Origin: an uncultured virus (IMG/VR IMGVR_UViG_3300033153_010090)
Taxonomy: Duplodnaviria > Heunggongvirae > Uroviricota > Caudoviricetes
Virus record (IMG/VR): IMGVR_UViG_3300033153_010090
DNA: 64,000 bases
Strand: one strand, 5' to 3'
Part shown: positions 1,148-41,012 of the stretch, one piece after another
How the letters are laid out: each line of letters starts with the position of its first letter
How positions within the stretch are numbered: position 1 is the first letter of the stretch
Made by a program: the position numbers and the translations under genes
The notes under the pieces: generated by a model
Seen by the model: only the letters and a program-made list of their open reading frames with translations
What the model was told of the DNA's origin: nothing
Databases searched by the model: none

Positions 1148-2299
1148 TTACGCAGTAAAGCTCTTGGTGCTGAGGAGCATGGGCAACTGACTAGCCACGC
1201 TCGCTAGACCCGGGGCAGCAATGACCGGGGCCGGCGCACCTAAAACGACCTGGGCTGTGGGGCAAACAAAAGTACTGATCTGTGCGATGAGACTGGAAAG
1301 CACGGCTACCAACTGGTCACCATGGACCAATGGGTGGGCAGCAGAGGGCCCACCCAGATGAATGGTTGCTCCGTCGATGAACATCTGGGCCGCAGCCTCC
1401 AGTGTGGCGGTGGTACCCGCCTTCAAGTTCACGTCGAGGTCGCTCTCAATGGAAGCAGACTGGGCCGATCTGTAACTCATCGTCCCGCCAACTTCCGTGC
1501 TGTGGTTCCCGTCGATGGTCTCAGTCCGGTTCCCGTGGACGAGAGAGGTTACATCCTTCTGGATCTCCCAGTTGACATTCCCCTCCTTGGTGATCTCTAA
1601 ACGCACCATAGTGTCCGCGTCCGCAGCGCCAGATGCCTTCACCAACATGTTCAGTGTAGTCTGGCTACCCTCCCCATGGGAACCAGCGGTCAGTTCGACG
1701 ATGTGCTCCTTATCGTTGGCCTTCTCCTTCACCAACAACGAGAACTTTGTCATGACGTCGCCGTCGGTGGTCTTCTCCGTCCGGTCCGCAAGCCAAGTCA
1801 GCTCCCCACCGAAGGTAAACAGCTGGTAGTTCTCACAAAAGTCACGAATGAAGTTCTGGATCGGGATGTACATTCGTTGTGCAGCGGAGGTCGCCCCAAT
1901 CTGCACGCCACCACCGCGGCGGAGGATGATGAAGTTCTCATCCCGAGTCTTCATCATCATGTCGCCCGGGTTTAACTGTGCACGATTCGAGGCGAAGTTG
2001 TCATTGTCTTCATCGTGTGGAGCCTGGAAGCCCAGGATGAATGGCACAGCGTGGAGACCCTCACTGGGGGTACAAACCCACACCAGCGCACCTATTTCAG
2101 GCACCGCATAGATGCCCTCGCCGTTGGTGTAGTGGAGGTAGGGGGTCATGATCTGGATGTCGAAGTACTTCTTGTCGCCATGCTCGGAGATGGCGTCGAC
2201 GGTCCAGTCCGCAATGTTGACGTTCGTGATCCTACCGGTCTCCACGACCGGTGAGATAAACTTGGTGTCCTGAATACCACGCGTCATCAGTACAACCAC
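1148..2299 (-). CDS. Baseplate central spike/hub protein (gp5/GpV-like)
   Basis: N-terminal OB-fold-like segment (VPEIGALVWV), beta-strand repeats (HGNRTETIDGNHSTEVGG), C-terminal HLGG..AHPLVHGDQL typical of contractile-tail spikes. Confidence 0.65.
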   Translation of the reverse strand: MVVLMTRGIQDTKFISPVVETGRITNVNIADWTVDAISEHGDKKYFDIQIMTPYLHYTNGEGIYAVPEIGALVWVCTPSEGLHAVPFILGFQAPHDEDNDNFASNRAQLNPGDMMMKTRDENFIILRRGGGVQIGATSAAQRMYIPIQNFIRDFCENYQLFTFGGELTWLADRTEKTTDGDVMTKFSLLVKEKANDKEHIVELTAGSHGEGSQTTLNMLVKASGAADADTMVRLEITKEGNVNWEIQKDVTSLVHGNRTETIDGNHSTEVGGTMSYRSAQSASIESDLDVNLKAGTTATLEAAAQMFIDGATIHLGGPSAAHPLVHGDQLVAVLSSLIAQISTFVCPTAQVVLGAPAPVIAAPGLASVASQLPMLLSTKSFTA

Positions 2300-8200: not shown

Positions 8201-8472
8201 TGAGCAATCGTGACTGTCTTGGCATCCTTCACCTTGCCGGTCGCCTTGTCACGGAGCTCGACCGTGGCCTTGACCGGAACAGTCCAACTACGACCCTTCA
8301 GCCGCGCGTCTTGCTGGCCGCGGATGTCGTCGATGTCCTTGTTGTCCTGGACGGTGACGTTCTTGATGGTGAGGGTATTCTTGGACCCCTCAACGGGGAA
8401 GTGCCCCTTGACCGCTTCAACCGTTCTCTCTTTCAGGGTCTCAAAGGCATCCTCTGGAGCGAAGTGAGCCAT
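2287..8472 (-). CDS. Single-polypeptide DNA-directed RNA polymerase, fused beta + beta-prime
   Basis: Beta motifs HTPEGKRIG, GLNFEDGIVIS, GDKVVGRHGNKGIV, YILKLHH; beta-prime motifs GRRQDMSMRSTI, KRDPVLH, NADFDGD, CAHGSGICAKC, AAQALGEPTTQLVLRSFH. Confidence 0.97.
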   Translation of the reverse strand: MAHFAPEDAFETLKERTVEAVKGHFPVEGSKNTLTIKNVTVQDNKDIDDIRGQQDARLKGRSWTVPVKATVELRDKATGKVKDAKTVTIAQLPKITRRYSHIVDGNEWQVGNQFRLKSGVYTRVKDNGELSSQWNLAEGLGFDMDFNPAKRQMTLGYNHSNVPVYPVLKAMGVDDKAMEKTWGSEVFEANKDVNEGQALRKLYKAMTGKTSDNLDEIRGHVKETFGNTKLLKDTTAKTLGQPFDKVSGEALLSGAGKLLRVSRQEDKPDDRDSLEFKALWSAEDLMQERLSKDARYDISRKLKNNIDRKDKVTDIVTPDTFGKPVKSFFTNSSFSERSDQRNPVGFLVGARKTTILGQHGIDSERRITLAAQSINPSHTGFLDPVHTPEGKRIGAVTQLSSGARKVGQDLKIPLVNLKTGKKEMVGPGAALNANIAFADQFKKVNGKLVPRSKQVEAVETGGDMMLLDPKKVDYVFDSTKGMYDVSSNMVPFLQNDQGNRSMVASRQLEQAVPLVHREQPLVQTRGDRGSTFEKAVGMLSAHHSPVAGTIERVGKQSIMVKDGKGKRHEVQLYDDFPLNDDKSVVNSTPLVKKGDKVKPGQTVADTSFTRDGTLSLGTNLRTAYMPWKGLNFEDGIVISETAAKKLTSEHLHRQATRSDENTILNKRKFLAETAGKVTRAQADKLDDDAVVRPGQLVESGDILIGELKKELLTPEQKQLALFSRKAAKPVRARPQTWEKDYPGMVSKVVKHGKDTTVYVKTQTPAEVGDKVVGRHGNKGIVTSVLADVEMPTFKDGTAAEILLNPAGIPGRINIGQAFETAASKIAEKTGKIYATNNFDPDVPDQAAKVMAELKQHGLSATEEMFDPQTKKPFKEKVLAGKQYILKLHHTAEKKLSARSRDTYTGNMTPQRGGPHGGQSMDASGMYALLAHGATANVREMQTIKSDMNDELWAKMQTGEPIPPPRVPFVYKKFESMLRGAGVNVKKDGNSLVLEPLTDKGTLALSNGEIKDPGRRLRAKDATPEKDGLFDPVVTGTRWPKGRFGDKWAHIKLSERMPNPTFEKPVRTLLGLNTKEFGSVMEGKVEIEGKTSAKAVVSALSKIDVEKDLGSLENSVADLRGAKLDTANKKIKFLRALKTAGLSPKEAYTMKYVPVLPANMRPISVMPNGDLNEADLNGIYAGGVGAPNHQLKTFDKGMPEEERHPLVNELYDGLKALNLTGMTYKRRHRSGIVEQIAGPRGKPPKLGFFQDKVIGRRQDMSMRSTIVPDPTLNLDEVGLPRKAASEMYKPFTVARMVRMGLSPLEAQKHIKEDSPTARRALEIEASNRPVLLKRDPVLHKQGVQAFRPQLVEGKTIKIHPLVTSGYNADFDGDTMSAFVPVTPAAVKEAHKMFPSNNLFSQSWGDIAYKPDHEAALGIFKLSQMGKKTKHVFATPAEAAKAAHLGKIDMTDVVTIKNISGKIEDPKSIVKTAAKPVKTTVGRLLLHNSLPEEVRDSKMLTDPKFEMTKSVLSKKLSEVARKKKGDYAQTTDNLKDLGNEYATGFSMGLEDFAPNRTERDRVLRSAKATETKIRSSKMTKKQKNDAVIKLYTKADEVISDRTKKQMQTSGNRMYDWVKSGSRGSWDQFKQLAIAPMLVLDSSGKTVPVPITKSYSEGLSAGQYWTAMHGARMGMIGKGRGTELPGALSKQMINTAINQVVTADDCETSKGITFGVDDTNALDRFTTKEIRFGVKGGKDKGKIPAGTLVTPEVMTRLKNNKVKEIPVRTPLKCAHGSGICAKCMGLNEDGQQFPKGDNVGIKAAQALGEPTTQLVLRSFHEGGVAGSKSAHAVGQFDRLKQLVELPEKVAGAATLSTMAGKIEKVDKDPAGGWNVQVGGQRHFVPGRNELAVKQGQAVKRGDALSSGPKNPRHMLPLTGIGSVQRYLTDEIVAVYNKKTPLHRRNAEVVVRSLTNLSAVNDPGSHYGLLRGDTTATSEINSFNSKLSAGKKPVQHTPILKGVNIMPLEMQTDWLARMQATRLKTSLEDGAAQGWKSNIHSRHPIPGMAYGKEFGLGTEQAPWLY

Positions 8473-10556: not shown

Positions 10557-11918
10557 ATGGTGGTTCCTGGGATTGTTGAGCGCATTGTGGCGCTCGTTGT
10601 CGCCGCAGGTGGAAAGGCACTGCTCGTTGGGGGAGCGGTAGTTGATCATCTGCAGGGCCGTGAGCCCAAAGACTGGGACATTGAGGTGTACGGTCTGCCC
10701 ATGTCCCGGGTGGAACAGTTGCTGACCGAGGCCGAGCTCAACCCGAAAGCTGTCGGGAAGGAGTTTGGCATCCTCAAGATCGGTGGGGATATTGAGGTGG
10801 ATGTCTCCGTCCCCCGCAGGGAGAACAAGATCGGGAAGGGTCATCGCGACTTTGCGGTGGAGCTCGACCCGAACATGACTCCCAAGGAGGCCGCTCGCCG
10901 GCGCGACCTCACGATCAACAGCATCGCCTATGACCTCAGTACGGGAGAGGTCATCGACCCCTGGGGCGGTGTTGAGGATCTGAAGGCCGGCATCATCCGC
11001 GCCACGGACCCGGAGACCTTTGTTGAGGACCCTCTCCGGGTCTTGCGCATCATGCAGCTACTCCCTCGCAAGGGGGACTCACTGGACGCTGCCACTCTTG
11101 GGCTGTGCAAGCGGCTTGAAGGTGAGTTCCAGAACCTCTCCCGCGAACGTGTGTTTGTGGAGTGGGAGAAGCTGCTGCTCAAGGCAGAGAAGCCCAGCAT
11201 TGGGCTGACCTTCTTGAGGGCGTGCGGATGGATCAGACACTTCCCTGAGCTCGCGGCACTCGTGGGCTGTGCGCAGCACCCGGAGTGGCACCCGGAGGGA
11301 GATGCCTGGCAGCACACCTTGGTGGTGTTGGACAACGCGGCCAAGGTGAGGGGCCAGCTGCCTGAGGAGTGGCGCCTCGGGTTCATGTTCGGAGCTCTGC
11401 TTCACGATGTGGGTAAGCCCTCCACCACCCTGGAGGACTTCACCAGTCGTGGTCATGACGCGGCGGGGTTGCCACTCGCTGAGGGGTTCATGAAGAGAGT
11501 CACGAACAGCAAGTCCCTACTCGAGCAGGTCGACAGCGTCGTTGGGCAGCACATGCAGCCCGGCAACCTCGAGCGGGGCAACGCCAAGGCCTCTGCCTGG
11601 CGCCGGCTGCAGAACAAGCTGCGGCTGGATGTGCTGGGGTGGATGAGCTTGTGCGACTGGGCTTGTGTCCCAGGCCGTGATGTTCTCGCGTCGAACGACC
11701 ACAAGCCCAGCAAACTGTGCTGGAAGTGGTTCGAGGACTTGGGAGCCACGGCTGAGAAGATCGAGTCTATCCTGGGAGGGAAGGACCTGGTCGCCGCTGG
11801 ATACAAGCCGGGCCCTGCGTTCGGGAAGGCTCTCCAGAAAGCCTACGAGGCTCAGATGGAGGGGATCACCAACCGGGGTGAGCTGCTTGCTATCGCAATC
11901 GAAGACCTCATCGCCTGA
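10557..11918 (+). CDS. cca: Class II tRNA nucleotidyltransferase (CCA-adding-like) with HD domain
   Basis: VGGAV.D...DWDIE, RRDLTINS, EDPLRVLR, HPEGD..HT, LLHDVGK, PGP.FG. Confidence 0.9.
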   Translation: MVVPGIVERIVALVVAAGGKALLVGGAVVDHLQGREPKDWDIEVYGLPMSRVEQLLTEAELNPKAVGKEFGILKIGGDIEVDVSVPRRENKIGKGHRDFAVELDPNMTPKEAARRRDLTINSIAYDLSTGEVIDPWGGVEDLKAGIIRATDPETFVEDPLRVLRIMQLLPRKGDSLDAATLGLCKRLEGEFQNLSRERVFVEWEKLLLKAEKPSIGLTFLRACGWIRHFPELAALVGCAQHPEWHPEGDAWQHTLVVLDNAAKVRGQLPEEWRLGFMFGALLHDVGKPSTTLEDFTSRGHDAAGLPLAEGFMKRVTNSKSLLEQVDSVVGQHMQPGNLERGNAKASAWRRLQNKLRLDVLGWMSLCDWACVPGRDVLASNDHKPSKLCWKWFEDLGATAEKIESILGGKDLVAAGYKPGPAFGKALQKAYEAQMEGITNRGELLAIAIEDLIA

Positions 11919-33998: not shown

Positions 33999-34136
33999 AG
34001 CTAGCGCCTGATGCGTTCGAGGCGCTAGACCCTGACGAGCTCCGACTCCTGGCCGATGCGGCAGGGGTAGGGTACAAGGGGCTCACCGACGATGAGCTGC
34101 GAGCCAAGCTCGAACAAGCCTCCCAGTAACCTTCAA

Positions 34137-34170
34137 GCGTCCGCCTCCTACTCAGGGGGCGGGCGCATTT
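34137..34170 (+). terminator. Hairpin terminator
   Basis: GCGTCCGCCTCCT-ACTC-AGGGGGCGGGCGC-ATTT. Confidence 0.55.
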
Positions 34171-34184
34171 GGTATCATCAAACC

Positions 34185-34487
34185 ATGGACCTGAAGATTG
34201 CCAGCCCAGAGCGGCGCGCGGATGCACGGTTGCGGAGGATCATCAGCATGATCGCCTGTGAGCGAAAGCATCAGCAACGCCGGTGGACGGACGAGGCGGA
34301 CAAACGAAGGACACCAGCTGACTGGATTGCTGTGCTGTCGATCTTCATCGGCAAAGCAGCTATGGAGACCCCGCTCTACCAGGCGAAGCTCTCTACCACC
34401 AGCTTCAAGAAACGCATCGTTCAGATCGCGGCCATTTGCATGGCCATTCTCGAGGCCATCGACGAAGGCGGAACTGATGAAGGCTGA
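34185..34487 (+). CDS. MazG-like all-alpha fold protein lacking the acidic motif
   Basis: ER.HQ..RW, DWIAVL..GK, IVQIAAIC.AILE pattern. Confidence 0.55.
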   Translation: MDLKIASPERRADARLRRIISMIACERKHQQRRWTDEADKRRTPADWIAVLSIFIGKAAMETPLYQAKLSTTSFKKRIVQIAAICMAILEAIDEGGTDEG

Positions 34488-34818
34488 GAACTACGTCGTC
34501 TCCATGACGGCATTTGAGACTGCGCTCATTGCTCTGGTTCTGATGGGGGTGACCGCCATCGTTGGTGTCGGGACCGGCTTCTACTTCGGCGCCCGCCTCG
34601 CCGCCGCGGGAGTCGTGGACCACACAAACGAGGTGCTTCAACTGTGCAACAAGGTCGTCGACCACGAGGATGATCGCGTGACCGCGTGGAAGATGAACGG
34701 TGAGAGCTGTCAAGACGAAGTGGAGCGGTATCGCACCTGGCTCACCGACGTCGAAGACTCCACAAAGCTGAGAGCCACAGTGGCACACCCCAAGCGGACC
34801 AACCGCGGAGGGCAGTGA
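34477..34818 (+). CDS. Hypothetical membrane-anchored protein
   Basis: N-terminal hydrophobic helix. Confidence 0.65.
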   Translation: MKAENYVVSMTAFETALIALVLMGVTAIVGVGTGFYFGARLAAAGVVDHTNEVLQLCNKVVDHEDDRVTAWKMNGESCQDEVERYRTWLTDVEDSTKLRATVAHPKRTNRGGQ

Positions 34819-34821
34819 GCG

Positions 34822-34859
34822 GGCCCGGCAGGTGTAACAACCTGTCGGGCCTCTTTTTT
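34822..34859 (+). terminator. Intrinsic terminator between the replication block and the convergent tRNA array
   Basis: GGCCCGGCAGG...CCTGTCGGGCC-TCTTTTTT. Confidence 0.8.
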
Positions 34860-34862
34860 AGC

Positions 34863-34948
34863 TGGCAGAGGGTAGAGGAGTCGAACCCCCAACCTTTCGG
34901 CCGCCCCGGTTTTCGAGACCGGTTGCCACCCACGTAGCAGTACCCTCT
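34863..34948 (-). tRNA. tRNA-Ser(CGA)
   Basis: Cloverleaf, loop CT-CGA-AA, long variable arm, GCCA. Confidence 0.9.
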
Positions 34949-34953
34949 TCATA

Positions 34954-35025
34954 TCGGGGTGGGCGGGTTCGAACCGCCGACCTCTCGGTCCCCGACCGAG
35001 CGCCCTACCACTGGGCCACACCCCG
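34954..35025 (-). tRNA. tRNA-Pro(GGG), C33, no encoded CCA
   Basis: CGGGGTG acceptor, loop TC-GGG-GA. Confidence 0.88.
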
Positions 35026-35090
35026 TTGTCGCTCACTGACCTCCTTCTCGTGACACACAAACCTCGTTGTTGCTCACCAGTGATCAGCTA

Positions 35091-35164
35091 TCGGGATGGT
35101 GGGGCTCGAACCCACGACCTCCGGCTCCCGAAGCCGGCGCGCTACCAACCTGCGCTACATCCCG
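35091..35164 (-). tRNA. tRNA-Pro(CGG), no encoded CCA
   Basis: Loop TT-CGG-GA. Confidence 0.92.
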
Positions 35165-35241
35165 TGGTCGGAGAGACAGGGATTGAACCTGCGACCCCCG
35201 GCTCCCAAAGCCGGTGCTCTACCAAACTGAGCTACTCTCCG
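35165..35241 (-). tRNA. tRNA-Pro(TGG)
   Basis: Loop TT-TGG-GA, ACCA. Confidence 0.95.
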
Positions 35242-35245
35242 ATAA

Positions 35246-35337
35246 TGGCGGAGCGTGAGGGATTCGAACCCCCGCGACCCGTGAAGGCCGACCTCGGGTT
35301 AGCAACCCGGCGCTTTGCCAGACTCAGCCAACGCTCC
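35246..35337 (-). tRNA. tRNA-Ser(GCT)
   Basis: Loop TT-GCT-AA, long variable arm, GCCA. Confidence 0.92.
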
Positions 35338-35343
35338 GTAGGA

Positions 35344-35454
35344 CTAGAGCGCTGGCGTACTCGGGGGTGGGTACGAGGAGGATGAGGGCGAGGGCAGACG
35401 ACCGGCGTTGAAGTGGTCGACAAAGAACAGAGCTGCCATCGTGTAGCGGAACAT
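35344..35454 (-). CDS. Leader peptide of tRNA unit 3 (MFRYTMAALFFVDHFNAGRLPSPSSSSYPPPSTPAL)
   Basis: AGGAGGG RBS; 12 of the last 16 codons are Ser/Pro; stop lies 6 nt before tRNA-Ser(GCT). Confidence 0.8.
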   Translation of the reverse strand: MFRYTMAALFFVDHFNAGRLPSPSSSSYPPPSTPAL

Positions 35455-35474
35455 GATGTTCCCTCCTACCTTTC

Positions 35475-35502
35475 AGTATCGGCATCTCCGTCGAGATGTC
35501 AA
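35475..35502 (-). promoter_or_regulatory. Sigma70-like promoter of tRNA unit 3
   Basis: TTGACA-N16-GATACT. Confidence 0.7.
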
Positions 35503-35510
35503 CAAGAAAT

Positions 35511-35586
35511 TGGGGTGACCGACGGGGTTTGAACCCGCGACCTTCCGGGCCACAGCCGGACGCTCTACCACTGAGCTACGGCCACC
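35511..35586 (-). tRNA. tRNA-His(GTG)
   Basis: Loop CT-GTG-GC, G-1 encoded, CCCA. Confidence 0.95.
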
Positions 35587-35589
35587 ACA

Positions 35590-35666
35590 TGGTGATGCCG
35601 ACCGGGCTTGAACCGGCTCTCACCGGCTTGAAAGGCCGGCGGCTCGACCCCTTCGCCTTCGGCACC
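35590..35666 (-). tRNA. tRNA-Glu(TTC), atypical D arm
   Basis: Loop CT-TTC-AA, A at position 8, ACCA. Confidence 0.8.
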
Positions 35667-35669
35667 ACA

Positions 35670-35745
35670 TGGTGGAATCGGAGGGACTCGAACCCTCGAC
35701 CCCCTGTCTGCCAGACAGGTGCTCTCCCAGCTGAGCTACGACCCC
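35670..35745 (-). tRNA. tRNA-Ala(GGC)
   Basis: Loop CT-GGC-AG, G3:U70. Confidence 0.95.
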
Positions 35746-35746
35746 A

Positions 35747-35856
35747 TACCGACCCGTTGACTTGGCTGCTGGCTATTGGCACCGCGCACGGGTCAACACG
35801 CGCTACCGGACCAGCAGTTGCCCCTCCGCTCCTGTTCGCGACCAAGAGCTTCGGTA
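35747..35856 (-). ncRNA. Unclassified structured RNA (~110 nt) between two tRNA-Ala genes
   Basis: Nested pairings TACCGA/TCGGTA, CTTGG/CCAAG, CTGCTGG/CCAGCAG, GCGCG/TGCGC. Confidence 0.45.
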
Positions 35857-35934
35857 TGGTGGACGGGAAGGGATTCGAACCCTCGACCGGCTGGGTGCAA
35901 ACCAGCTGCTCTCCCGGACTGAGCTACCGCGCCC
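35857..35934 (-). tRNA. tRNA-Ala(TGC)
   Basis: Loop TT-TGC-AC, G3:U70, one bulged acceptor base. Confidence 0.9.
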
Positions 35935-35937
35935 ACA

Positions 35938-36012
35938 TGGTACTCGTGGCGGGAATTGAACCCGCGTTACCGGCGTGAGAGGCCGGCGTCCTTACCCCTA
36001 GACGACACGAGC
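35938..36012 (-). tRNA. tRNA-Glu(CTC)
   Basis: Loop CT-CTC-AC. Confidence 0.93.
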
Positions 36013-36036
36013 ACAAACCTTGATCAATCCCTCCTT

Positions 36037-36112
36037 TGGAGCTGGTGAGAGGACTCGAACCTCCAACCTGCTGATTACAAATCAGCTGCTCTACCAGTTG
36101 AGCTACACCAGC
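36037..36112 (-). tRNA. tRNA-Thr(TGT)
   Basis: Loop TT-TGT-AA, TCCA. Confidence 0.95.
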
Positions 36113-36115
36113 ATG

Positions 36116-36180
36116 CGGGGAGCACGAGGATCGAACTCGCAACACCCCCGGCCCAGGGCGTTACCCCTAGCGGACTCCCC
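36116..36180 (-). ncRNA. tRNA-like RNA without a canonical anticodon loop
   Basis: Acceptor GGGGAGT/GCTCCCC, T arm GCGAG-TTCGATC-CTCGT, anticodon arm reduced to CCCT-GGGCC-GGGG. Confidence 0.6.
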
Positions 36181-36184
36181 GAAC

Positions 36185-36260
36185 TGGAGCTGGTGGAGGG
36201 AGTCGAACCCCCGGCCTGCTCATTACGAGTGAGCTGCTCTACCTACTGAGCTACACCAGC
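36185..36260 (-). tRNA. tRNA-Thr(CGT)
   Basis: Loop CT-CGT-AA. Confidence 0.95.
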
Positions 36261-36458
36261 ATCGCCCTTTCTGTTCTCCAAGATTCCTTTGCACGTCTTG
36301 CACGTCACTTCGCCGTCGTGTCTGGTGTGAGTGATGTATGTCTTCCAATCCAACACGATCCCACACAAAGTGATGTCTGCATCTTCAGACCCATGAGACG
36401 GACCGTACAGGGTGTCTTCTTTTGCTCTCACCCTTCGGACTGTATACCGCACATTCAC
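36243..36458 (-). CDS. Small zinc-binding protein (71 aa) inside the tRNA array
   Basis: AAGGAGGG + GTG; H...TLCG...VTCKTC; stop lies inside tRNA-Thr(CGT). Confidence 0.65.
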   Translation of the reverse strand: MNVRYTVRRVRAKEDTLYGPSHGSEDADITLCGIVLDWKTYITHTRHDGEVTCKTCKGILENRKGDAGVAQ

Positions 36459-36469
36459 AGCGCCCTCCT

Positions 36470-36545
36470 TGGAGCTGGGGACCGGGTACGATCCGGTGAC
36501 CTCTCCCGTACCAGGGGAGTGCTCTACCAACTGAGCTACCCCAGC
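36470..36545 (-). tRNA. tRNA-Thr(GGT)
   Basis: Loop CT-GGT-AC; T loop ATCGTAC. Confidence 0.92.
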
Positions 36546-36548
36546 ATA

Positions 36549-36620
36549 TGCCCGAACCTGGGTTTGAACCAGGGACACCCGGCGTGTCGAGCCGGAGCTC
36601 TACCACTGAGCTACCCGGGC
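36549..36620 (-). tRNA. tRNA-Val(GAC), C33, no encoded CCA
   Basis: Loop TC-GAC-AC. Confidence 0.88.
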
Positions 36621-36622
36621 AC

Positions 36623-36698
36623 TGGAGCACGTGACGGGGTTCGAACCCGTGACCTCAGCCTTGGCAAGGCTACGCTCTACCAACTGAGCTACACGCAC
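36623..36698 (-). tRNA. tRNA-Gly(GCC)
   Basis: Loop TT-GCC-AA, TCCA. Confidence 0.95.
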
Positions 36699-36700
36699 AC

Positions 36701-37108
36701 CTACGCTGCCTTCTTCATCCGGTCGAAGTACTGCCGCATCACCGACGCCTTCACCTCGGCGTACGTCAAACCCAGGGCCTGCGCCATGGGCCAGAAGCAC
36801 TGCTTCATCGTACGCTCACGTCCGTCTGCCTTCTCGTAGAGATCGAGCACTGAGCACTGCACACGCCCCTCGAACCGCAGATCACCCTCGAGCTCTTCGA
36901 TGAGGCACGATGTGTACCCGTTGCGCTTGCGATTGGCCGCGGTGAGCGGAGCCACCTTCGCCAACAGGTCCTTGAGCGCTGCACGCGCACCCTCGTCGAG
37001 CTTCTTGAACTCGCCCCCGTACTTGACGTACAGCTCGTCGACCTTGTTGCGCACGACGTCGTGCTTCCAGTTCATGCGGAACTTCTTGCCGCCTACGGTG
37101 ATCAACAT
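36701..37108 (-). CDS. Hypothetical protein inside the tRNA array
   Basis: AGGAGAGGGAG RBS, phage-like codon usage. Confidence 0.75.
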   Translation of the reverse strand: MLITVGGKKFRMNWKHDVVRNKVDELYVKYGGEFKKLDEGARAALKDLLAKVAPLTAANRKRNGYTSCLIEELEGDLRFEGRVQCSVLDLYEKADGRERTMKQCFWPMAQALGLTYAEVKASVMRQYFDRMKKAA

Positions 37109-37121
37109 CTCCCTCTCCTGT

Positions 37122-37337
37122 TCAGCTTGCGCTGAGCTGCAGTCCTCGTCCCAAGACGAAGAGGTTCTTGGCCAAGCACCGGACGACCTTGCCCGGCGCC
37201 TTCTCCACCATCACAGCGTCGAGGCCACGATCTGTGGTGTACCCGACGACCTTGCCGTTGAACGGCCCCTTCATACGACATCCCTTCTTCGTCCGCACCG
37301 GAGTACCGACGGGGAAAGCAACTTTGACACTCATCAC
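37122..37337 (-). CDS. Small beta-barrel (KOW/SH3-like) hypothetical protein
   Basis: AAAGGAGG RBS; FPVGTPVR...GPF.GKVVG. Confidence 0.6.
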   Translation of the reverse strand: MMSVKVAFPVGTPVRTKKGCRMKGPFNGKVVGYTTDRGLDAVMVEKAPGKVVRCLAKNLFVLGRGLQLSAS

Positions 37338-37350
37338 GGCCTCCTTTCTT

Positions 37351-37427
37351 TGGTGGGCTCGGAGGGAATCGAACCCCCGACATGCCGATTAAGAGTCGGC
37401 TGCTCTACCTAGCTGAGCTACGAACCC
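37351..37427 (-). tRNA. tRNA-Lys(CTT)
   Basis: Loop CT-CTT-AA. Confidence 0.95.
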
Positions 37428-37428
37428 A

Positions 37429-37506
37429 TGGTGGGGGCGGTCGGCATCGAACCGACGACCTCCCGGTTAAAAGCCGGGTGCTGCTGCCGCGCTGAGCTAC
37501 GCCCCC
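37429..37506 (-). tRNA. tRNA-Lys(TTT)
   Basis: Loop CT-TTT-AA; irregular D stem. Confidence 0.9.
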
Positions 37507-37612
37507 TAGCGCTTCAGTCGCCCCGGTTTCAACCGTTCCCACGTGTCCTCAGTCATCAGCACAATGTCTCTCCTCGGAAACCACGGACTCTTCAACCACT
37601 CGAAAAAACTCT

Positions 37613-37690
37613 TGGTGCCCTCGACAGGACTCGAACCTGCGACCTCCACGTCCGGAGCGTGGCGCTCTGAATCCACTGAGCTACGAAGGC
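37613..37690 (-). tRNA. tRNA-Arg(CCG)
   Basis: Loop CT-CCG-GA. Confidence 0.95.
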
Positions 37691-37693
37691 ATA

Positions 37694-37771
37694 TGGCGCC
37701 CCCGGTAGGATTCGAACCCACGACCCGCCGGTTAGAAGCCGGCTGCTCTAAATCCACTGAGCTACGGAGGC
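37694..37771 (-). tRNA. tRNA-Arg(TCT)
   Basis: Loop CT-TCT-AA. Confidence 0.95.
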
Positions 37772-37812
37772 GCAACTTGTTCATGCCGATCTCCTCCGTC
37801 GCCTGCCAACAA

Positions 37813-37887
37813 TGGTGGGCGCCCAGGGATTCGAACCCAGGACCGTTCGGTTATGAGCCGAGTGCTCTACCGCTAAGCTATGCGCCC
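37813..37887 (-). tRNA. tRNA(CAT), probably Ile2 (lysidine); elongator Met not excluded
   Basis: Loop CT-CAT-AA; GGGCGC acceptor typical of Ile2. Confidence 0.8.
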
Positions 37888-37907
37888 ACAACACCATCTC
37901 GTCTCCT

Positions 37908-37982
37908 TGGAGCCTGTACTCGGGTTCGAACCGAGGACATCCAGCTTGGAAGGCTGGCGTTCTACCACTGAACTACACAGGC
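37908..37982 (-). tRNA. tRNA-Gly(TCC)
   Basis: Loop CT-TCC-AA, TCCA. Confidence 0.95.
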
Positions 37983-37990
37983 TCATCTAG

Positions 37991-38064
37991 TGCCCAGTGC
38001 AGGGTTCGAACCTGCGCCCTCCGCTGTGTGAAAGCGGCGCTCTACCAAACTGAGCTACCCGGGC
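37991..38064 (-). tRNA. tRNA-Val(CAC), no encoded CCA
   Basis: Loop TT-CAC-AC, 3' A-CTA. Confidence 0.9.
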
Positions 38065-38081
38065 TCACTCCTTTCGATCTC

Positions 38082-38132
38082 GAGGAGGGAGGCTGGCGGG
38101 TCCAGCCATCTGTGACCTCAGCCTCCCTCCTC
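38082..38132. repeat. Long hairpin spacer
   Basis: 14-bp perfect stem GAGGAGGGAGGCTG/CAGCCTCCCTCCTC. Confidence 0.8.
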
Positions 38133-38137
38133 ACAAC

Positions 38138-38214
38138 TGGTACCCCGGGGTGGAATTGAACCACCGGCCCCTCGCTTATCAGGCGAGTGCTCTAGACCCC
38201 TGAGCTACCGGGGC
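38138..38214 (-). tRNA. tRNA-Ile(GAT)
   Basis: Loop CT-GAT-AA. Confidence 0.95.
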
Positions 38215-38259
38215 GAATACTCCCCGGGCGGTAGGCCCGGGGCGCACCGCCCATCAAAC

Positions 38260-38334
38260 TGGTAGCGGCGGAGGGATTCGAACCCTCGACTTCCGGGTTA
38301 TGAGCCCGGCGAGCTACCACTGCTCCACGCCGCA
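38260..38334 (-). tRNA. Initiator tRNA-fMet(CAT)
   Basis: 1:72 mismatch, three G-C pairs in the anticodon stem. Confidence 0.92.
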
Positions 38335-38346
38335 TCACCAACTCCT

Positions 38347-38422
38347 TGGAAGAGGCGGAGGGGCTCGAACCCCCAACCACCAGGATCAAAGCCTGGTGCT
38401 CTACCTGTTGAGCTACGCCTCT
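38347..38422 (-). tRNA. tRNA-Gln(TTG)
   Basis: Loop CT-TTG-AT. Confidence 0.92.
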
Positions 38423-38426
38423 AACC

Positions 38427-38502
38427 TGGCTGGGGCGGCAGGGATCGAACCTGCGACCTTCCGGGTCAGAGCCGACTGCTCTACCAGCTGAGCTACGCCC
38501 CA
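38427..38502 (-). tRNA. tRNA-Gln(CTG)
   Basis: Loop CT-CTG-AC, U1-A72. Confidence 0.92.
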
Positions 38503-38511
38503 TCATCAACC

Positions 38512-38590
38512 TGGCACCCCGAGCAGGACTCGAACCTGCGACCTCCTGATTCGTAGTCAGGCGCTCTGAATCCAACTGAGCTACCGAGGC
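38512..38590 (-). tRNA. tRNA-Arg(ACG)
   Basis: Loop CT-ACG-AA. Confidence 0.95.
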
Positions 38591-38600
38591 ACAACAAAAG

Positions 38601-38679
38601 TGGCGGGGCCGACGGGATTTGAACCCGCGGTCTCCTGAGTGACAGTCAGGCGAAGACGGCCAGACTCTTCCACGGCCCC
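38601..38679 (-). tRNA. tRNA-Asp(GTC)
   Basis: Loop CT-GTC-AC, GCCA. Confidence 0.95.
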
Positions 38680-38766
38680 ACAAGGTGGTGGTCGCAGCGT
38701 AGGTGTCCGTCAGCCAGGTGTCGTTACGGTTTGTCCGTGGTCGGGATCCCAGAGCTGGTGGACAGT

Positions 38767-38895
38767 TTACGCTGCCCTGGGATCTCGAAAAGGATGCTGT
38801 CCCTCGATACCGCGGACCGCAACCATCTTCGCCACGGCTGTTGCCGTAGCGGTTCTGGCTTCTTTGCTGGTCCGTATGGTTTGCACGAGTGACAT
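38767..38895 (-). CDS. Leader peptide of tRNA unit 2 (MSLVQTIRTSKEARTATATAVAKMVAVRGIEGQHPFRDPRAA)
   Basis: ATG 7 nt after the -10 box (probably leaderless); 34 different codons in 42; covers all 23 downstream tRNAs. Confidence 0.75.
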   Translation of the reverse strand: MSLVQTIRTSKEARTATATAVAKMVAVRGIEGQHPFRDPRAA

Positions 38896-38902
38896 CTTCT
38901 TC

Positions 38903-38932
38903 AAGGTAAAGGATTGTGGTTCTGAAAGTCAA
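38903..38932 (-). promoter_or_regulatory. Sigma70-like promoter of tRNA unit 2
   Basis: TTGACT-N18-TACCTT with A-rich upstream DNA. Confidence 0.6.
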
Positions 38933-38981
38933 CAACCTTTTTCTCGTCGCTACTCTTTTTTCGACGAGGTTCATATATATG

Positions 38982-39052
38982 AGTGCGGTACTGGATTCGA
39001 ACCAGTGTAGTTGGGGTTGCAACCCAACACCTCGCCTCTCGGACAACCGCAC
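38982..39052 (-). tRNA. tRNA-Cys(GCA), no encoded CCA
   Basis: Loop TT-GCA-AC, U73. Confidence 0.9.
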
Positions 39053-39053
39053 A

Positions 39054-39139
39054 TGGAGGAGGGTGAGGGATTTGAACCCCCGGAACTTTCGCCCTCACGC
39101 TTTCTAAGCGTGCGCCTTCAACCACTCGGCCAACCCTCC
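39054..39139 (-). tRNA. tRNA-Ser(AGA)
   Basis: CACGC-TT-AGA-AA-GCGTG, Ser-type body with long variable arm. Confidence 0.88.
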
Positions 39140-39141
39140 AC

Positions 39142-39219
39142 TGGTACCGGGAGAGGGAGTCGAACCCTCAGAGAACTGGGTTTTGAATCCAGCGCGTCTA
39201 CCAATTCCGCCACCCCGGC
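39142..39219 (-). tRNA. tRNA-Leu(CAA), short variable loop
   Basis: Loop TT-CAA-AA, Leu-type D arm. Confidence 0.9.
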
Positions 39220-39305
39220 GCTATACTCCTTTCGATCCCTCAACGACATCTATCTTGAGGGAGGCGCAAGGCCCCCCAGGTGTCGACCCGGGGGGCCTTC
39301 TTCTT

Positions 39306-39382
39306 TGGTACCCGGCCCGGGACTCGAACCCGGAAACTCTCGGACCTGAACCGAGCGACTGTGCCAGTTCGCCTAGCCGGGC
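39306..39382 (-). tRNA. tRNA-Leu(CAG), short variable loop
   Basis: Loop TT-CAG-GT. Confidence 0.88.
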
Positions 39383-39388
39383 ACATGA

Positions 39389-39469
39389 TGTAGCGGGATG
39401 GATTTGAACCACCGACCTTTCGGTACTCGGGGGTTACAGCCCCGTGCCTTACCACTCGGCCACCGCTAC
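39389..39469 (-). tRNA. tRNA-Tyr(GTA), no encoded CCA
   Basis: Loop CT-GTA-AC, variable arm, 3' A-TCA. Confidence 0.92.
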
Positions 39470-39472
39470 ACA

Positions 39473-39561
39473 TGGTGTCGGAGGAGGGACTTGAACCCAC
39501 ACGACCCTTTCGGGCCACCGGCTCCTCGGGCCGGCGCGTCTACCAGTTCCGCCACTCCGAC
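39473..39561 (-). tRNA. tRNA-Leu(GAG), C33
   Basis: Loop CC-GAG-GA, long variable arm. Confidence 0.9.
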
Positions 39562-39595
39562 ACATCATTCTTTCTCGTCGCCACTCACCTCAGTT

Positions 39596-39673
39596 TGGTA
39601 CGGGTGAAGGGACTCGAACCCTCAGAGACCCGGGTCTTAAACCCAGCGCATGTACCGATTCTGCGACACCCGC
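39596..39673 (-). tRNA. tRNA-Leu(TAA), short variable loop
   Basis: Loop TT-TAA-GA. Confidence 0.88.
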
Positions 39674-39678
39674 ATGGT

Positions 39679-39754
39679 TGGTGGGCCGGGGCGGATTCGA
39701 ACCGCCGACGCGCGGCTCTTCAGGCCGCCGCTCTACCGACTGAGCTACCGACCC
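39679..39754 (-). tRNA. tRNA-Phe(GAA)
   Basis: Loop CT-GAA-GA. Confidence 0.95.
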
Positions 39755-39816
39755 GCATAAGCGGATGGCGCAGCCGATAAATCGAGTTGTGAGCGTCTTC
39801 GTCATCAGTGCCCTCA

Positions 39817-39891
39817 TGGCAGGCGGCCAAGGAATCGAACCTTGCTGACGGCTGGATTTGGAGTCCGACCCGCTTACCCAGAGCGCCGCCC
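39817..39891 (-). tRNA. tRNA-Trp(CCA), non-canonical compact fold
   Basis: Loop CT-CCA-AA, G73-CCA, no 8/9 connector, extended anticodon stem. Confidence 0.8.
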
Positions 39892-39896
39892 AAAGG

Positions 39897-39972
39897 TGGC
39901 TCCAGGGGAGGGACTCGAACCCCCGACCAGGCGGTTAACAGCCGCCCGCTCTACCAGCTGAGCTACCCTGGA
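39897..39972 (-). tRNA. tRNA-Asn(GTT)
   Basis: Loop CT-GTT-AA, U1-A72, GCCA. Confidence 0.95.
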
Positions 39973-39982
39973 ACAGTTGGGG

Positions 39983-40102
39983 CTAGCGCCAGCTCGTATT
40001 CAGTCGGGGATACAAAAATAGGGAGTCGAGACAAAGAAGTAAGGAGCTCGACGTGGGGGATCGAGGAGTGGTGCGTGCGATGATGGTCTGTTCGGTACGC
40101 AT
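39983..40102 (-). CDS. Leader peptide of tRNA unit 1 (MRTEQTIIARTTPRSPTSSSLLLCLDSLFLYPRLNTSWR)
   Basis: AGGAG RBS; all six Leu codons plus Cys, Phe, Tyr, Asn, Trp and Ser codons; stop lies 10 nt before tRNA-Asn. Confidence 0.82.
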   Translation of the reverse strand: MRTEQTIIARTTPRSPTSSSLLLCLDSLFLYPRLNTSWR

Positions 40103-40119
40103 GGCTGTCTCCTAGTTTC

Positions 40120-40148
40120 AGGATGCACAGTCACATTCGATCTGTCAA
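40120..40148 (-). promoter_or_regulatory. Sigma70-like promoter of tRNA unit 1
   Basis: TTGACA-N17-CATCCT. Confidence 0.65.
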
Positions 40149-40645
40149 TACCAATTTTGAATGGCCAGATAAATACCCGCGGTCAAAGATGAGGCAATGA
40201 CAATCCACCCGGGTATGCGTAGCCACCAAGGGGAGATACCAAAGTCCGCCGCGGCCTTCTGCAGGTCAGTGAACGAACTGCTACCCCACGACCCAACCCA
40301 CAGGTCAATGAGGCCCCCACCGAGAACAACGAGCCACCCGGCCCACATCCAGTCAGGCCAGTAGCTGAAGAACGGGAAGGCCACTGCGGGGATGATGTTG
40401 GCAAGTCGCGGAGCCAGACTGATCCATCCCTGCTCGTGATCTCGCATCGGCCGGTACAGCGTCTTGCTGTTGCACGCCCACCGCCAACCGCCTTTGTACC
40501 GGTGCGGGATGACCTTGATCTCCCAGCTCTTCACCCCAACAAGGTGGTCCGCCACGACGACGTGAAGGAGCTCATGGATGTAGGCCCAGAAGAGGAAGGT
40601 GGGAACGAACCCGACGACCAGGATGATGACGAGCTGGATGATCAT
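40145..40645 (-). CDS. Membrane protein with HExxH (M50/zincin-like metallopeptidase)
   Basis: IHELLHVV, ISLAP, several transmembrane segments. Confidence 0.65.
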   Translation of the reverse strand: MIIQLVIILVVGFVPTFLFWAYIHELLHVVVADHLVGVKSWEIKVIPHRYKGGWRWACNSKTLYRPMRDHEQGWISLAPRLANIIPAVAFPFFSYWPDWMWAGWLVVLGGGLIDLWVGSWGSSSFTDLQKAAADFGISPWWLRIPGWIVIASSLTAGIYLAIQNWY

Positions 40646-40652
40646 GGCAGTA

Positions 40653-40961
40653 TCAGTTCCAACCCTCGACGCCAGTGACGAACTTCTGACGCTTCACGTT
40701 CTGTGTCATCGGATTCCACTTGGCGGTCTGAGTGACACCGCGCGCGTTGGTGCCAGTGCCCTTGCTCACAGCCTGCTGGATGGTCTTGCCGTGCCCTTTG
40801 AACGACGGAGTGAACCCAGAAGACTTCAAGGCCTTGGGCTTGAACAGCTTGCCAACACCCTTGGCGGCGCCAGCAACCATCGAGCCAAGGCCCGCATCCT
40901 TCTCGAAGCCATTGATGTACGCGAGCTCGTCGACAAAAGCTGCCATCATGATGGGATTCAT
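40653..40961 (-). CDS. Small putative virion internal protein
   Basis: AFVDELAYINGFEKDAG motif; AAAGGAG RBS. Confidence 0.7.
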   Translation of the reverse strand: MNPIMMAAFVDELAYINGFEKDAGLGSMVAGAAKGVGKLFKPKALKSSGFTPSFKGHGKTIQQAVSKGTGTNARGVTQTAKWNPMTQNVKRQKFVTGVEGWN

Positions 40962-41012
40962 AGTCAGCTCCTTTCGTGCCTCAGTGATACCACGGGTGGA
41001 GGTGGGGAGGAA

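Follow-up and report, generated by a model that had tools for sequence, protein, structure and literature searches.

How is the expression of a long array of transfer RNA (tRNA) genes controlled in a large phage? To our knowledge, essentially nothing has been established about the regulation of such arrays. The question is raised by a 64,000-nucleotide (nt) stretch of DNA from an uncultured virus (IMG/VR record IMGVR_UViG_3300033153_010090). This stretch, referred to here as the window, is a 60% G+C part of a large phage genome in which 38 tRNA genes were identified by ARAGORN and confirmed by Rfam. All of them lie on the minus strand, from 39972 to 34863. The sequence TTGACW occurs on the transcribed strand between positions 34,800 and 40,200 at three sites only (40148, 38932 and 35502), which head three short open reading frames (ORFs) designated leader 1, leader 2 and leader 3, respectively. 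The three largest non-coding gaps at the start of a run of tRNA genes are each headed by one of these sites, so that three units are distinguished (Table 1). On balance, we consider it probable that leader 2, which precedes the 23 tRNA genes of unit 2, is a translated sensor of tRNA supply of the leader-peptide type, reading 23 ways and belonging to a set of three in the array.

Leader 2 contains 42 sense codons, 34 of them distinct, and encodes the peptide MSLVQTIRTSKEARTATATAVAKMVAVRGIEGQHPFRDPRAA. Under standard wobble rules it has a codon for each of the 23 tRNAs of unit 2. The codon is the exact complement for 19 of the 23 (counting ATA for a lysidine-modified Ile2), and wobble is needed for the other four, namely GGT, CAT and GAT by G:U pairing and CGC by inosine at position 34 (I34). 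Thirty-six of the 42 codons are readable by unit 2, and codons for Asn, Trp, Tyr and Cys are absent. The first-pass annotation, made from the letters of the window, had already described 34 different codons in 42, the match to all 23 tRNAs and the lack of these four kinds of codon. The frame was found again on the minus strand, and the complete match proved to be statistically extreme. The annotation had further placed the ATG 7 nt past the -10 box with no ribosome-binding site, and the layout TTGACT-18-TACCTT-7-ATG is indeed read, with no Shine-Dalgarno sequence before the start codon. Its C-rich trailer of 87 nt before tRNA-Asp was borne out by a count of 34 C. Another of its points, the joint absence of GTA and GGG codons and of Val-TAC and Gly-CCC tRNAs, turned out to be uninformative, because GGG can be read by Gly-UCC and because leader 2 contains GCG, AGG, CGA, GTT and GCT, for which the exact-complement tRNAs are likewise absent. 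The order of codons in leader 2 was also compared by inspection with the order of tRNA genes in unit 2, and no correlation was seen. The -10 region is weak, and the putative unit-2 promoter (P2) was not listed by a consensus promoter scan. A leaderless start of leader 2 is plausible and has a direct counterpart in phage phiCbK (see below).

Several null models were used to evaluate the coverage of 23/23. None of 16,502 open 42-codon windows, taken in six frames outside the array, reaches 23/23, and the best coverage in a sparser sampling of 7,073 open windows is 22/23. Full coverage is reached by 26 of 96,744 independent, identically distributed (iid) random sequences with the base composition of leader 2, and by 106 of 96,315 when both tRNAs with the anticodon CAT are allowed to read only ATG. 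Shuffles that keep the predicted base pairs and the open frame reach it in 4 of 52,368 cases. The resulting P values for leader 2 lie between 1.1e-3 and less than 6e-5 across four nulls, with unit boundaries, wobble rules and choice of ORF fixed after the sequence had been seen. When the same peptide is re-coded according to the codon usage of the phage, 3,520 of 200,000 versions reach 23/23, and when the stretch is read in its five other frames, 13-15 of the 23 tRNAs are covered. Amino-acid composition, synonymous codon choice and reading frame thus all contribute to the coverage. At least 34 distinct codons are found in 16 of the 7,073 windows.

The two sister leaders show the same relation to their own units. 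Leader 1, the second half of which reads SSSLLLCLDSLFLYPRLNTSW, has codons for 10/10 tRNAs of unit 1, and all six Leu codons occur in it. Coverage of 10/10 is found in 45 of 17,289 open windows (0.26%) and in 991 of 140,839 iid sequences. It requires tRNA-Ser-AGA to read UCC; if this tRNA reads only UCU, the coverage of leader 1 is 9/10, and at least 9 is reached by 5,644 of 140,310 iid sequences. The anticodon AGA, with A at position 34 (A34), of this tRNA-Ser (39054-39139, minus strand) is unusual in bacteria and phages, and editing of A34 to inosine would decide between 10/10 and 9/10. Leader 3, which ends in PSPSSSSYPPPSTPAL, covers 5/5 tRNAs of unit 3, as do 1,820 of 18,160 open windows, so that its coverage alone is not significant (10% and 17% under two nulls). 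Cross-coverage is lower. Leader 2 covers 3/10 of unit 1 and 2/5 of unit 3, leader 1 covers 11/23 of unit 2 and 3/5 of unit 3, and leader 3 covers 6/10 of unit 1 and 10/23 of unit 2.

A further relation concerns the choice of wobble codons. In the two-codon NNY boxes that are served by one G34 tRNA each, the own-unit codons of the leaders end in U in 7/7 cases (AAT, TTT, TAT, TGT; CAT, GAT; AGT), against 2/14 for the NNY codons of other units (Fisher one-sided p = 3.1e-4, in a test that was devised, with unit boundaries chosen, after the data had been seen). These U-ending codons account for 16-35% of usage in the long genes of the phage. A sensor would be expected to use the codon that is read most slowly.

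A counterpart of this arrangement is present in Caulobacter phages. In phiCbK (JX100813), three short ORFs each precede a block of tRNA genes, and an annotated terminator follows each ORF. The leader of block 2, gp083, is annotated as a hypothetical protein; like the other two, it covers all tRNA species of its block (Table 1). The block-3 leader has TTGACA-17-TAGGGT with the ATG 7 nt further on, the same geometry as is proposed for leader 2. TTT and ATT are among the codons of the block-3 leader, and direct reading of the sequence reveals a segment complementary to the 5' arm of its terminator. The terminator of the Glu/Asp block carries the stop codon of the leader in its apical loop. The block-3 leader and its terminator are kept in phages CcrRogue and CcrPW, and block 3 of CcrPW has gained Asn and Arg tRNAs together with a leader that has three AAC codons instead of one AAT. 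Two extra, doubtful tRNAs were reported by ARAGORN in phiCbK (Ala-TGC at 3684-3754 and Ile-AAT at 5233-5307, counted within JX100813 47000-53000). The words 'attenuat' and 'leader' occur 0 times in the part of the phiCbK genome paper that was available (PMC3556154), and full-text searches of the literature returned no account of leader-peptide control of phage tRNA genes. The design of a leader ORF plus a terminator in phiCbK-like phages has thus apparently not been described in print.

The RNA of leader 2 (216 nt) is strongly structured, with a predicted fold of -84.2 kcal/mol (z -4.34; 0/200 shuffles as stable). Three elements are predicted in it: hairpin I within the ORF, stem A around the stop codon and hairpin II, a long-range fold of the trailer (Table 1). 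The stem straddling the stop codon in the first-pass annotation corresponds to stem A and is real as a local fold (-23.1 kcal/mol, z -4.93, 0/200 shuffles). It is absent from the minimum-energy fold of the whole 216-nt leader and is kinetically the first of two exclusive folds. Stem A forms first in co-transcriptional folds at lengths of 150-190 nt, and hairpin II, with which it is mutually exclusive, becomes the more favourable structure when the transcript has reached about nt 205. With hairpin II the complete leader has -84.2 kcal/mol, against -78.7 kcal/mol when stem A is enforced. Neither stem A nor hairpin II is a terminator. Since the two structures exclude each other, a switch is physically possible in these models. 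The annotation had called the region a plausible expression platform; of this proposal the two exclusive folds stand, but no recognizable output and no hairpin-plus-U-tract terminator accompany them.

The putative output device of leader 2 is not a classical intrinsic terminator. A consensus terminator scan, which found none on the minus strand, is a weak negative here, as it missed all three annotated terminators of phiCbK, whereas a permissive scan recovered 3/3 of them, at -18.5 to -34 kcal/mol. The best match of the permissive scan in leader 2 is a bulged hairpin of -12.9 kcal/mol with a UUUU tail inside the ORF. A weak hairpin with UUUU at 38791 was rejected as a terminator, and so was a 6-bp hairpin with a U-run inside leader 1; both are too weak and lie inside a translated frame.

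In leaders 1 and 3 the predicted structure is unremarkable (z -0.14 and -0.29). Among 78-nt windows upstream of a tRNA in the array transcript, a C/G ratio of at least 2 is found in leaders 1 and 3 only (C/G 2.0-3.6), and one further window of this kind trails the last tRNA of the array. The C/G ratio of the leader-2 trailer is only 1.8, and the trailer is predicted to be folded in hairpin II. The minus-strand RNA at 34807-34884 is C-rich, with a C/G of 2.0.

A hairpin with the stop codon at its loop is predicted at the end of each of the three leaders, the 5' arm consisting of the last codons. The last codons of leaders 1 and 3 are predicted to pair with the first 11-17 nt of the following tRNA. 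The stop-in-loop hairpins are significant for leaders 2 and 3 (z -4.93 and -4.17), and that of leader 1 has -20.9 kcal/mol and z -1.56. When the 30 nt upstream of each tRNA were compared with its 5' end, leaders 3 and 1 ranked second and third of 38 in complementarity, behind tRNA-Ile-GAT and closely followed by tRNA-Glu and tRNA-Phe. The upstream 30 nt of tRNA-Ile-GAT, tRNA-Phe and tRNA-Glu-TTC give -26.7, -22.1 and -23.1 kcal/mol, respectively, against a median of -13.6 kcal/mol. Because strong complementarity also precedes these three tRNAs, the feature is not specific to the leaders, and it is possibly a general feature of precursor processing in this array.

According to the proposed mechanism, each leader would be a short translated test ORF that opens one block of the array under a sigma-70-like promoter of its own, written so that every tRNA species of its own block is needed at least once. 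Since every tRNA of the block would be needed, the transit time of the ribosome would report scarcity of any of them, whether derived from the host or from the phage. Folding of the RNA around the stop codon would link the position of the ribosome to the expression of the tRNA block. Candidate outputs are loading of Rho on C-rich leader RNA or, for leaders 1 and 3, sequestration of the 5' half of the first tRNA by folding. In these two leaders a stalled ribosome would sit on the only Rho-utilization (rut)-like RNA of the array and would prevent the trapping of the tRNA 5' strand; whether by masking of the rut-like RNA or by release of the tRNA strand, a homeostatic loop would result. For leader 2, we infer a leaderless translation, a coupling to expression and a sign of regulation, and stalling would presumably change read-through or maturation. 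A more specific version is put forward tentatively, as one that may well be wrong. In it, the 42-codon panel would be a kinetic integrator whose total transit time reports a shortage of any of the 23 tRNAs, including shortages caused by tRNA-cleaving defences of the host. The panel would set the expression of the whole operon through a non-terminator device (the stop-loop hairpin in competition with the second fold, the output being either the loading of Rho or the folding of the precursor), and with the sister leaders it would provide three independent feedback loops, each specific for a codon class, on the decoding capacity of the phage.

No close relative of the window was found among cultured phages: the identity of its DNA polymerase to theirs does not exceed 34%, and a DNA search of INPHARED with the window matched tRNA fragments only. 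Scans of viral contigs gave nothing usable. A metagenome scan gave three loci at 30-34% identity, none of them with tRNAs. Marine-sediment contigs from two sequencing runs match the window closely over 38576-39148 (573 nt), with 19 and 20 substitutions and no gap. This stretch spans tRNA-Asp, leader 2, tRNA-Cys and most of tRNA-Ser. The few substitutions and the lack of gaps suggest that the leader region evolves about as slowly as the tRNAs and that the frame has not been shifted. Other spacers of the array have changed more. At least 11 changes are found in the 65-nt Pro-Pro spacer (35026-35090), and at least 30 changes and one gap in a 232-nt stretch of the Thr-Thr spacer, which diverges much faster than the leaders.

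Leader 3 of a relative carries at least 7 substitutions, and its frame, start, stop, Shine-Dalgarno sequence and both promoter hexamers are intact. Four of the seven listed changes in the ORF are synonymous. One change converts TCC (Ser) to CCC (Pro), so the coverage stays at 5/5. Two changes in an arm of the leader-3 hairpin keep the pairing (A-U to G-U and G-U to A-U). The contigs of the relatives give almost no cover across 36791-37333, which comprises most of the protein ORFs inside the array. The contigs measure 9,642 and 2,518 nt in run X1, 755 nt in run X2 and 1,103 nt in run X3. Their arrays are also rearranged: the one from run X1 is about 185 nt shorter between 39148 and 39812, and in a contig from run X3 the sequence of tRNA-Pro-TGG is joined directly to the Tyr/Leu part of unit 1. 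Such rearranged arrays are natural experiments for co-variation of leaders and tRNAs.

A number of observations weigh against a sensor function. Neither the consensus nor the permissive scan found an intrinsic terminator between the leader-2 ORF and tRNA-Asp, and placing a ribosome footprint along leader 2 in the folding did not give a consistent switch. The simplest Rho or hairpin readings of leader 2 predict that a stall leads to less read-through, which is the opposite of a homeostatic loop, because a lagging ribosome would let stem A form and leave the C-rich trailer open. With no Shine-Dalgarno sequence and a weak -10 region, the translation of leader 2 would depend on a putative leaderless start, and none of the three leaders was called by gene callers. 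A single codon per tRNA would signal stalling only weakly in comparison with the repeated codons in classical leaders, and leader 2 also holds six codons of other units. The dependence of leader 1 on the reading of UCC, the lack of significance of leader 3 by itself and the retrospective design of the NNY test belong here as well. In CcrRogue, the block-2 leader gp083 keeps six TCG codons and one TCC although the Ser tRNAs have been lost, so codon and tRNA contents do not always co-vary. For leader 2, the comparison with the sediment relatives covers counts of substitutions and gaps.

In the main alternative, leader 2 would be a structured RNA element at the 5' end of the tRNA precursor, non-coding and with a role in processing, stability or pausing, its frame and codons being incidental. 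The strong fold of the 216-nt RNA (-84.2 kcal/mol, z -4.34, 0/200) is what such an element would have; the start lacks a Shine-Dalgarno sequence, the -10 is weak, there is no terminator, gene finders report no ORF, and conservation in the relatives is explained equally well. It leaves unexplained, however, why 23/23 is reached in only 4 of 52,368 shuffles that keep both structure and frame, why other frames of the same RNA cover only 13-15 of the 23 tRNAs, and why the leaders prefer wobble codons of their own units. Leaders 1 and 3, moreover, show no unusual structure (z -0.14 and -0.29) and yet are codon-matched and have good Shine-Dalgarno sequences. We therefore regard a purely structural leader as unlikely.

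A second alternative accepts that leader 2 is translated and codon-matched but denies it a gating function. A pioneer ribosome might shield the long untranslated transcript, or it might time, once, the release of RNA polymerase from a pause at hairpin I. The anatomy would be the same as that of a sensor, and no output device has been identified in leader 2. Hairpin I pairs nt 2-5 by the start codon, so that only the first ribosome, acting co-transcriptionally, would be able to initiate. Neither task, on the other hand, gives a reason for coverage that is complete and unit-specific or for the rare wobble codons of the own unit, and in phiCbK, ORFs of the same kind are wired to canonical terminators. 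Translation without gating is accordingly judged to be quite unlikely.

Chance would require leader 2 to be an ordinary promoter spacer with a fitting frame, picked from the very many windows that were looked at, with boundaries, wobble rules and ORF chosen post hoc; that leader 3 is not significant by itself is in keeping with this. The four nulls for leader 2 (P below 6e-5 to 1.1e-3), the independent support from leader 1 (0.26%), the wobble-codon bias (p = 3.1e-4) and the recurrence of the pattern in the unrelated cultured phage family of phiCbK make a coincidence very improbable. Least credible of all is a small protein gene with an independent function for its 42-residue product: the frame is open behind a promoter-like site and further small ORFs lie in the array (36701-37108 and 37122-37337), but the frame matches no Pfam family, a full HMMER search of 1.84 billion representatives gave three matches to the peptide, all of 332-419 residues and all of low complexity since each matches in 3-6 repeated stretches, an exact look-up in the protein collection found no leader ORF or overlapping frame (one of ten sequences, a 166-residue neighbour, was present), and the coverage depends on synonymous codons as well as on the peptide.

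The sensor reading of leader 2 invites comparison with several known systems. Multivalent attenuators control amino-acid operons of enterobacteria and include the thr leader (Thr and Ile), the ilvGMEDA leader (Ile, Leu and Val), trpL, hisL, leuL and pheL. Rare CUA codons in the leu leader raise its sensitivity. Like the trpL, hisL and ilvL attenuators, leader 2 is a short ORF directly behind a promoter-like site and before the first gene. It likewise is enriched in codons tied to the downstream genes, has several kinds of codon at once and uses rare codons, and its RNA is predicted to form alternative pairings around the end of the ORF. In contrast to the classical attenuators, the controlled genes would be the tRNAs themselves rather than biosynthetic enzymes, most of the 23 tRNA species have a single codon where the attenuators have runs of codons for one to three amino acids, and the mRNA is probably leaderless. 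As leader 2 lacks the hairpin-plus-U-tract terminator, it is not assigned to the trp/his/ilv attenuator family.

Rho-dependent control by leader peptides is known from tnaC of the tryptophanase operon and from the mgtL/mgtP and corA leaders of Salmonella. As in the tnaC and mgtL systems, a leader ORF in the array lies by C-rich, G-poor RNA with no intrinsic terminator, and by analogy a ribosome held late in the ORF could either hide or uncover a loading site for Rho. Leaders 1 and 3 resemble these systems in being C-rich, G-poor and unstructured, whereas the trailer of leader 2 (C/G 1.8) is predicted to be folded. Sensing in the array would concern tRNA supply, not free amino acid or Mg2+.

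The units of phiCbK, CcrRogue and CcrPW are like those of the window in that, behind a promoter, a short ORF has codons for all tRNA species of its block (10/10, 23/23 and 5/5 in the window). The ATG 7 nt after the -10 is shared with one phiCbK unit, and the stop codon in an apical loop with the last codons as the 5' arm is shared with another. Rare U-ending codons occur in both (TTT, ATT and GAT in phiCbK). There is, however, no sequence similarity; the phiCbK units have terminators with U-tracts, whereas the leaders of the window have no canonical terminators, and the phiCbK blocks have 2-9 tRNAs against 23 behind leader 2.

The T-box riboswitch binds one uncharged tRNA directly and needs no ORF. 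The proposed sensor would resemble it as a leader RNA that lies upstream of translation-related genes and responds to the state of tRNA. A search with Rfam, T-box included, gave no match in 38680-38980 at the gathering threshold or at E values up to 1. An attenuator-like leader ORF with Phe codons and a terminator was reportedly described in 1985 before the Escherichia coli tRNA-Phe gene pheV. That case is said to involve a single tRNA, a single amino acid, a cellular gene and an intrinsic terminator; if so, it would be the nearest precedent for control of a tRNA gene by a leader peptide. The leader-2 design would extend known control by leader peptides and is apparently not in print.

If leader 2 is a sensor, phages would measure the speed of decoding directly and tune the supply of tRNA by codon class. 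The textbook logic of trp, his and ilv attenuation would be extended to tRNA genes and to a 23-way sensor, and a concrete, testable link would be provided between phage tRNAs and the depletion or cleavage of host tRNAs. Because the design occurs with canonical terminators in phiCbK, a phage of the genetically tractable Caulobacter, it can be tested at the bench now. If the terminator-less version in the window works as well, a second, hitherto unknown output mechanism would be indicated. Leader ORFs could become an annotation rule for tRNA arrays of phages.

Table 1. Positions of the leaders, promoter-like sites, predicted RNA structures and tRNA units, with the counterparts in Caulobacter phages (window positions unless another sequence is named)
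Feature	Positions	Strand	Details
Leader 2 ORF	38767..38895	(-)	ATG 38895, TAA 38769-38767
-35-like hexamer TTGACT, unit-2 promoter (P2)	38927..38932	(-)	direct reading
-10-like region of P2	38903..38909	(-)	TTACCT with 17-nt spacer or TACCTT with 18-nt spacer; ATG 8 or 7 nt on
Trailer, TAA to tRNA-Asp	38680..38766	(-)	87 nt; A21 C34 G19 T13; 39% C
Hairpin I (predicted)	38798..38894	(-)	leader nt 2-98; long imperfect hairpin in ORF; base pairs nt 2-5 behind start codon
Stem A (predicted; stem of the first-pass annotation)	38742..38788	(-)	11-bp arms 38784-38774 / 38755-38745; TAA in loop
Hairpin II (predicted)	38692..38777	(-)	leader nt 119-204; long-range trailer fold; base GCAGCGUA paired with UACGCUGC
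Leader 1 ORF	39983..40102	(-)	39 codons + TAG; AGGAG 6 nt before ATG; ends 10 nt before tRNA-Asn
-35 TTGACA, unit-1 promoter (P1)	40143..40148	(-)	hexamer search
Leader 3 ORF	35344..35454	(-)	36 codons + TAG; AGGAGG 35467-35462; Ser/Pro-rich tail; ends 6 nt before tRNA-Ser
Unit-3 promoter (P3)	35475..35502	(-)	TTGACA-16-GATACT; only promoter-like site from consensus scan, 34,000-41,000
Leader-3 hairpin (predicted)	35327..35356	(-)	codons 35356-35346 with first 11 nt of tRNA-Ser-GCT (35337-35327); -20.5 kcal/mol, z -4.17, 0/200
tRNA unit 1	38981..39972	(-)	10 tRNAs: Asn, Trp, Phe, four Leu, Tyr, Ser-AGA, Cys (ARAGORN)
tRNA unit 2	35511..38679	(-)	23 tRNAs, tRNA-Asp (38679) to tRNA-His (35511)
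tRNA unit 3	34863..35337	(-)	5 tRNAs: Ser-GCT, Pro-TGG, Pro-CGG, Pro-GGG, Ser-CGA
Upstream-complementary tRNA flanks	38215-38259, 39755-39816, 35667-35669 with flanks		tRNA-Ile-GAT, tRNA-Phe, tRNA-Glu-TTC
phiCbK leader units	1082-1144, 2541-2678, 4342-4440 within JX100813 47000-53000		
phiCbK block 1b			Glu, Asp; leader MTHLLTRYEREATGLDTTTA; coverage 2/2; iid null 28,030/218,881
phiCbK block 2			Pro, Pro, Lys, Lys, Leu, Leu, Leu, Ser, Ser; leader gp083, 45 residues; coverage 9/9; iid null 1,274/133,012
phiCbK block 3			Phe, Val, Ile, Ile, Val, Gln, Gln; leader MSKTYRQFVRQIQVVRNIRAGRSRMADEGFRD; coverage 6/6; iid null 2,484/103,202
Third-unit copies in CcrRogue/CcrPW excerpts	L006 4079-4174; L007 about 2593-2688		

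The tRNA genes are sorted by codon class across the three units. Unit 1 decodes all U-starting families except Ser UCG (Phe, Leu-UUR, Ser-UCH, Tyr, Cys and Trp) together with Leu-CUN and Asn. Unit 3 decodes Pro-CCN, Ser-AGY and Ser-UCG, the last by Ser-CGA, and unit 2 decodes the remainder. Two tRNAs with the anticodon CAT are present on the minus strand. The one at 38260-38334 has a 1:72 mismatch and three G-C pairs beside the anticodon loop, which are hallmarks of initiators, and from its sequence it looks like an initiator. The other, at 37813-37887, could be an elongator Met or a lysidine-containing Ile2 tRNA.

Rfam found tRNAs in the window and no further family. Unit 2 also contains two protein ORFs on the strand of the tRNAs (37337-37122, 71 codons; 37108-36701, 135 codons), so the unit would be a mixed tRNA-mRNA transcript. 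Neither of the two proteins matches a Pfam or PHROG family, and for the 135-residue protein a single relative (83% identity) was found, on a contig of 766 nt. Between tRNA-Thr-GGT and tRNA-Thr-CGT, a gap of 209 nt (36261-36470, minus strand) holds an open frame with a Cys-x-x-Cys motif (…EVTCKTCKGILENRKG…), for which no Pfam match was found.

Between tRNA-Cys and the unit-2 promoter, a 7-bp hairpin (CTCGTCG/CGACGAG) with A-run flanks lies at 38940-38975 on the minus strand. It lacks a U-tract on the transcribed strand, so transcription of unit 1 probably continues into leader 2. At the other end of the array, a canonical terminator with a 13-bp stem followed by CTTTTTT (34821-34852, plus strand) closes the plus-strand replication genes and abuts the last tRNA. 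This phage therefore does use canonical terminators, although its leaders lack them.

Elsewhere in the window, a fused protein of 2,061 residues (2287-8472) matches several RNA-polymerase beta-subunit families of phages in one chain. Other products include a family A DNA polymerase, a DnaB-like helicase, a primase, a UvsX-like recombinase and a tRNA nucleotidyltransferase, the last at 10557-11918. Those tRNA genes whose sequences were inspected already end in CCA.

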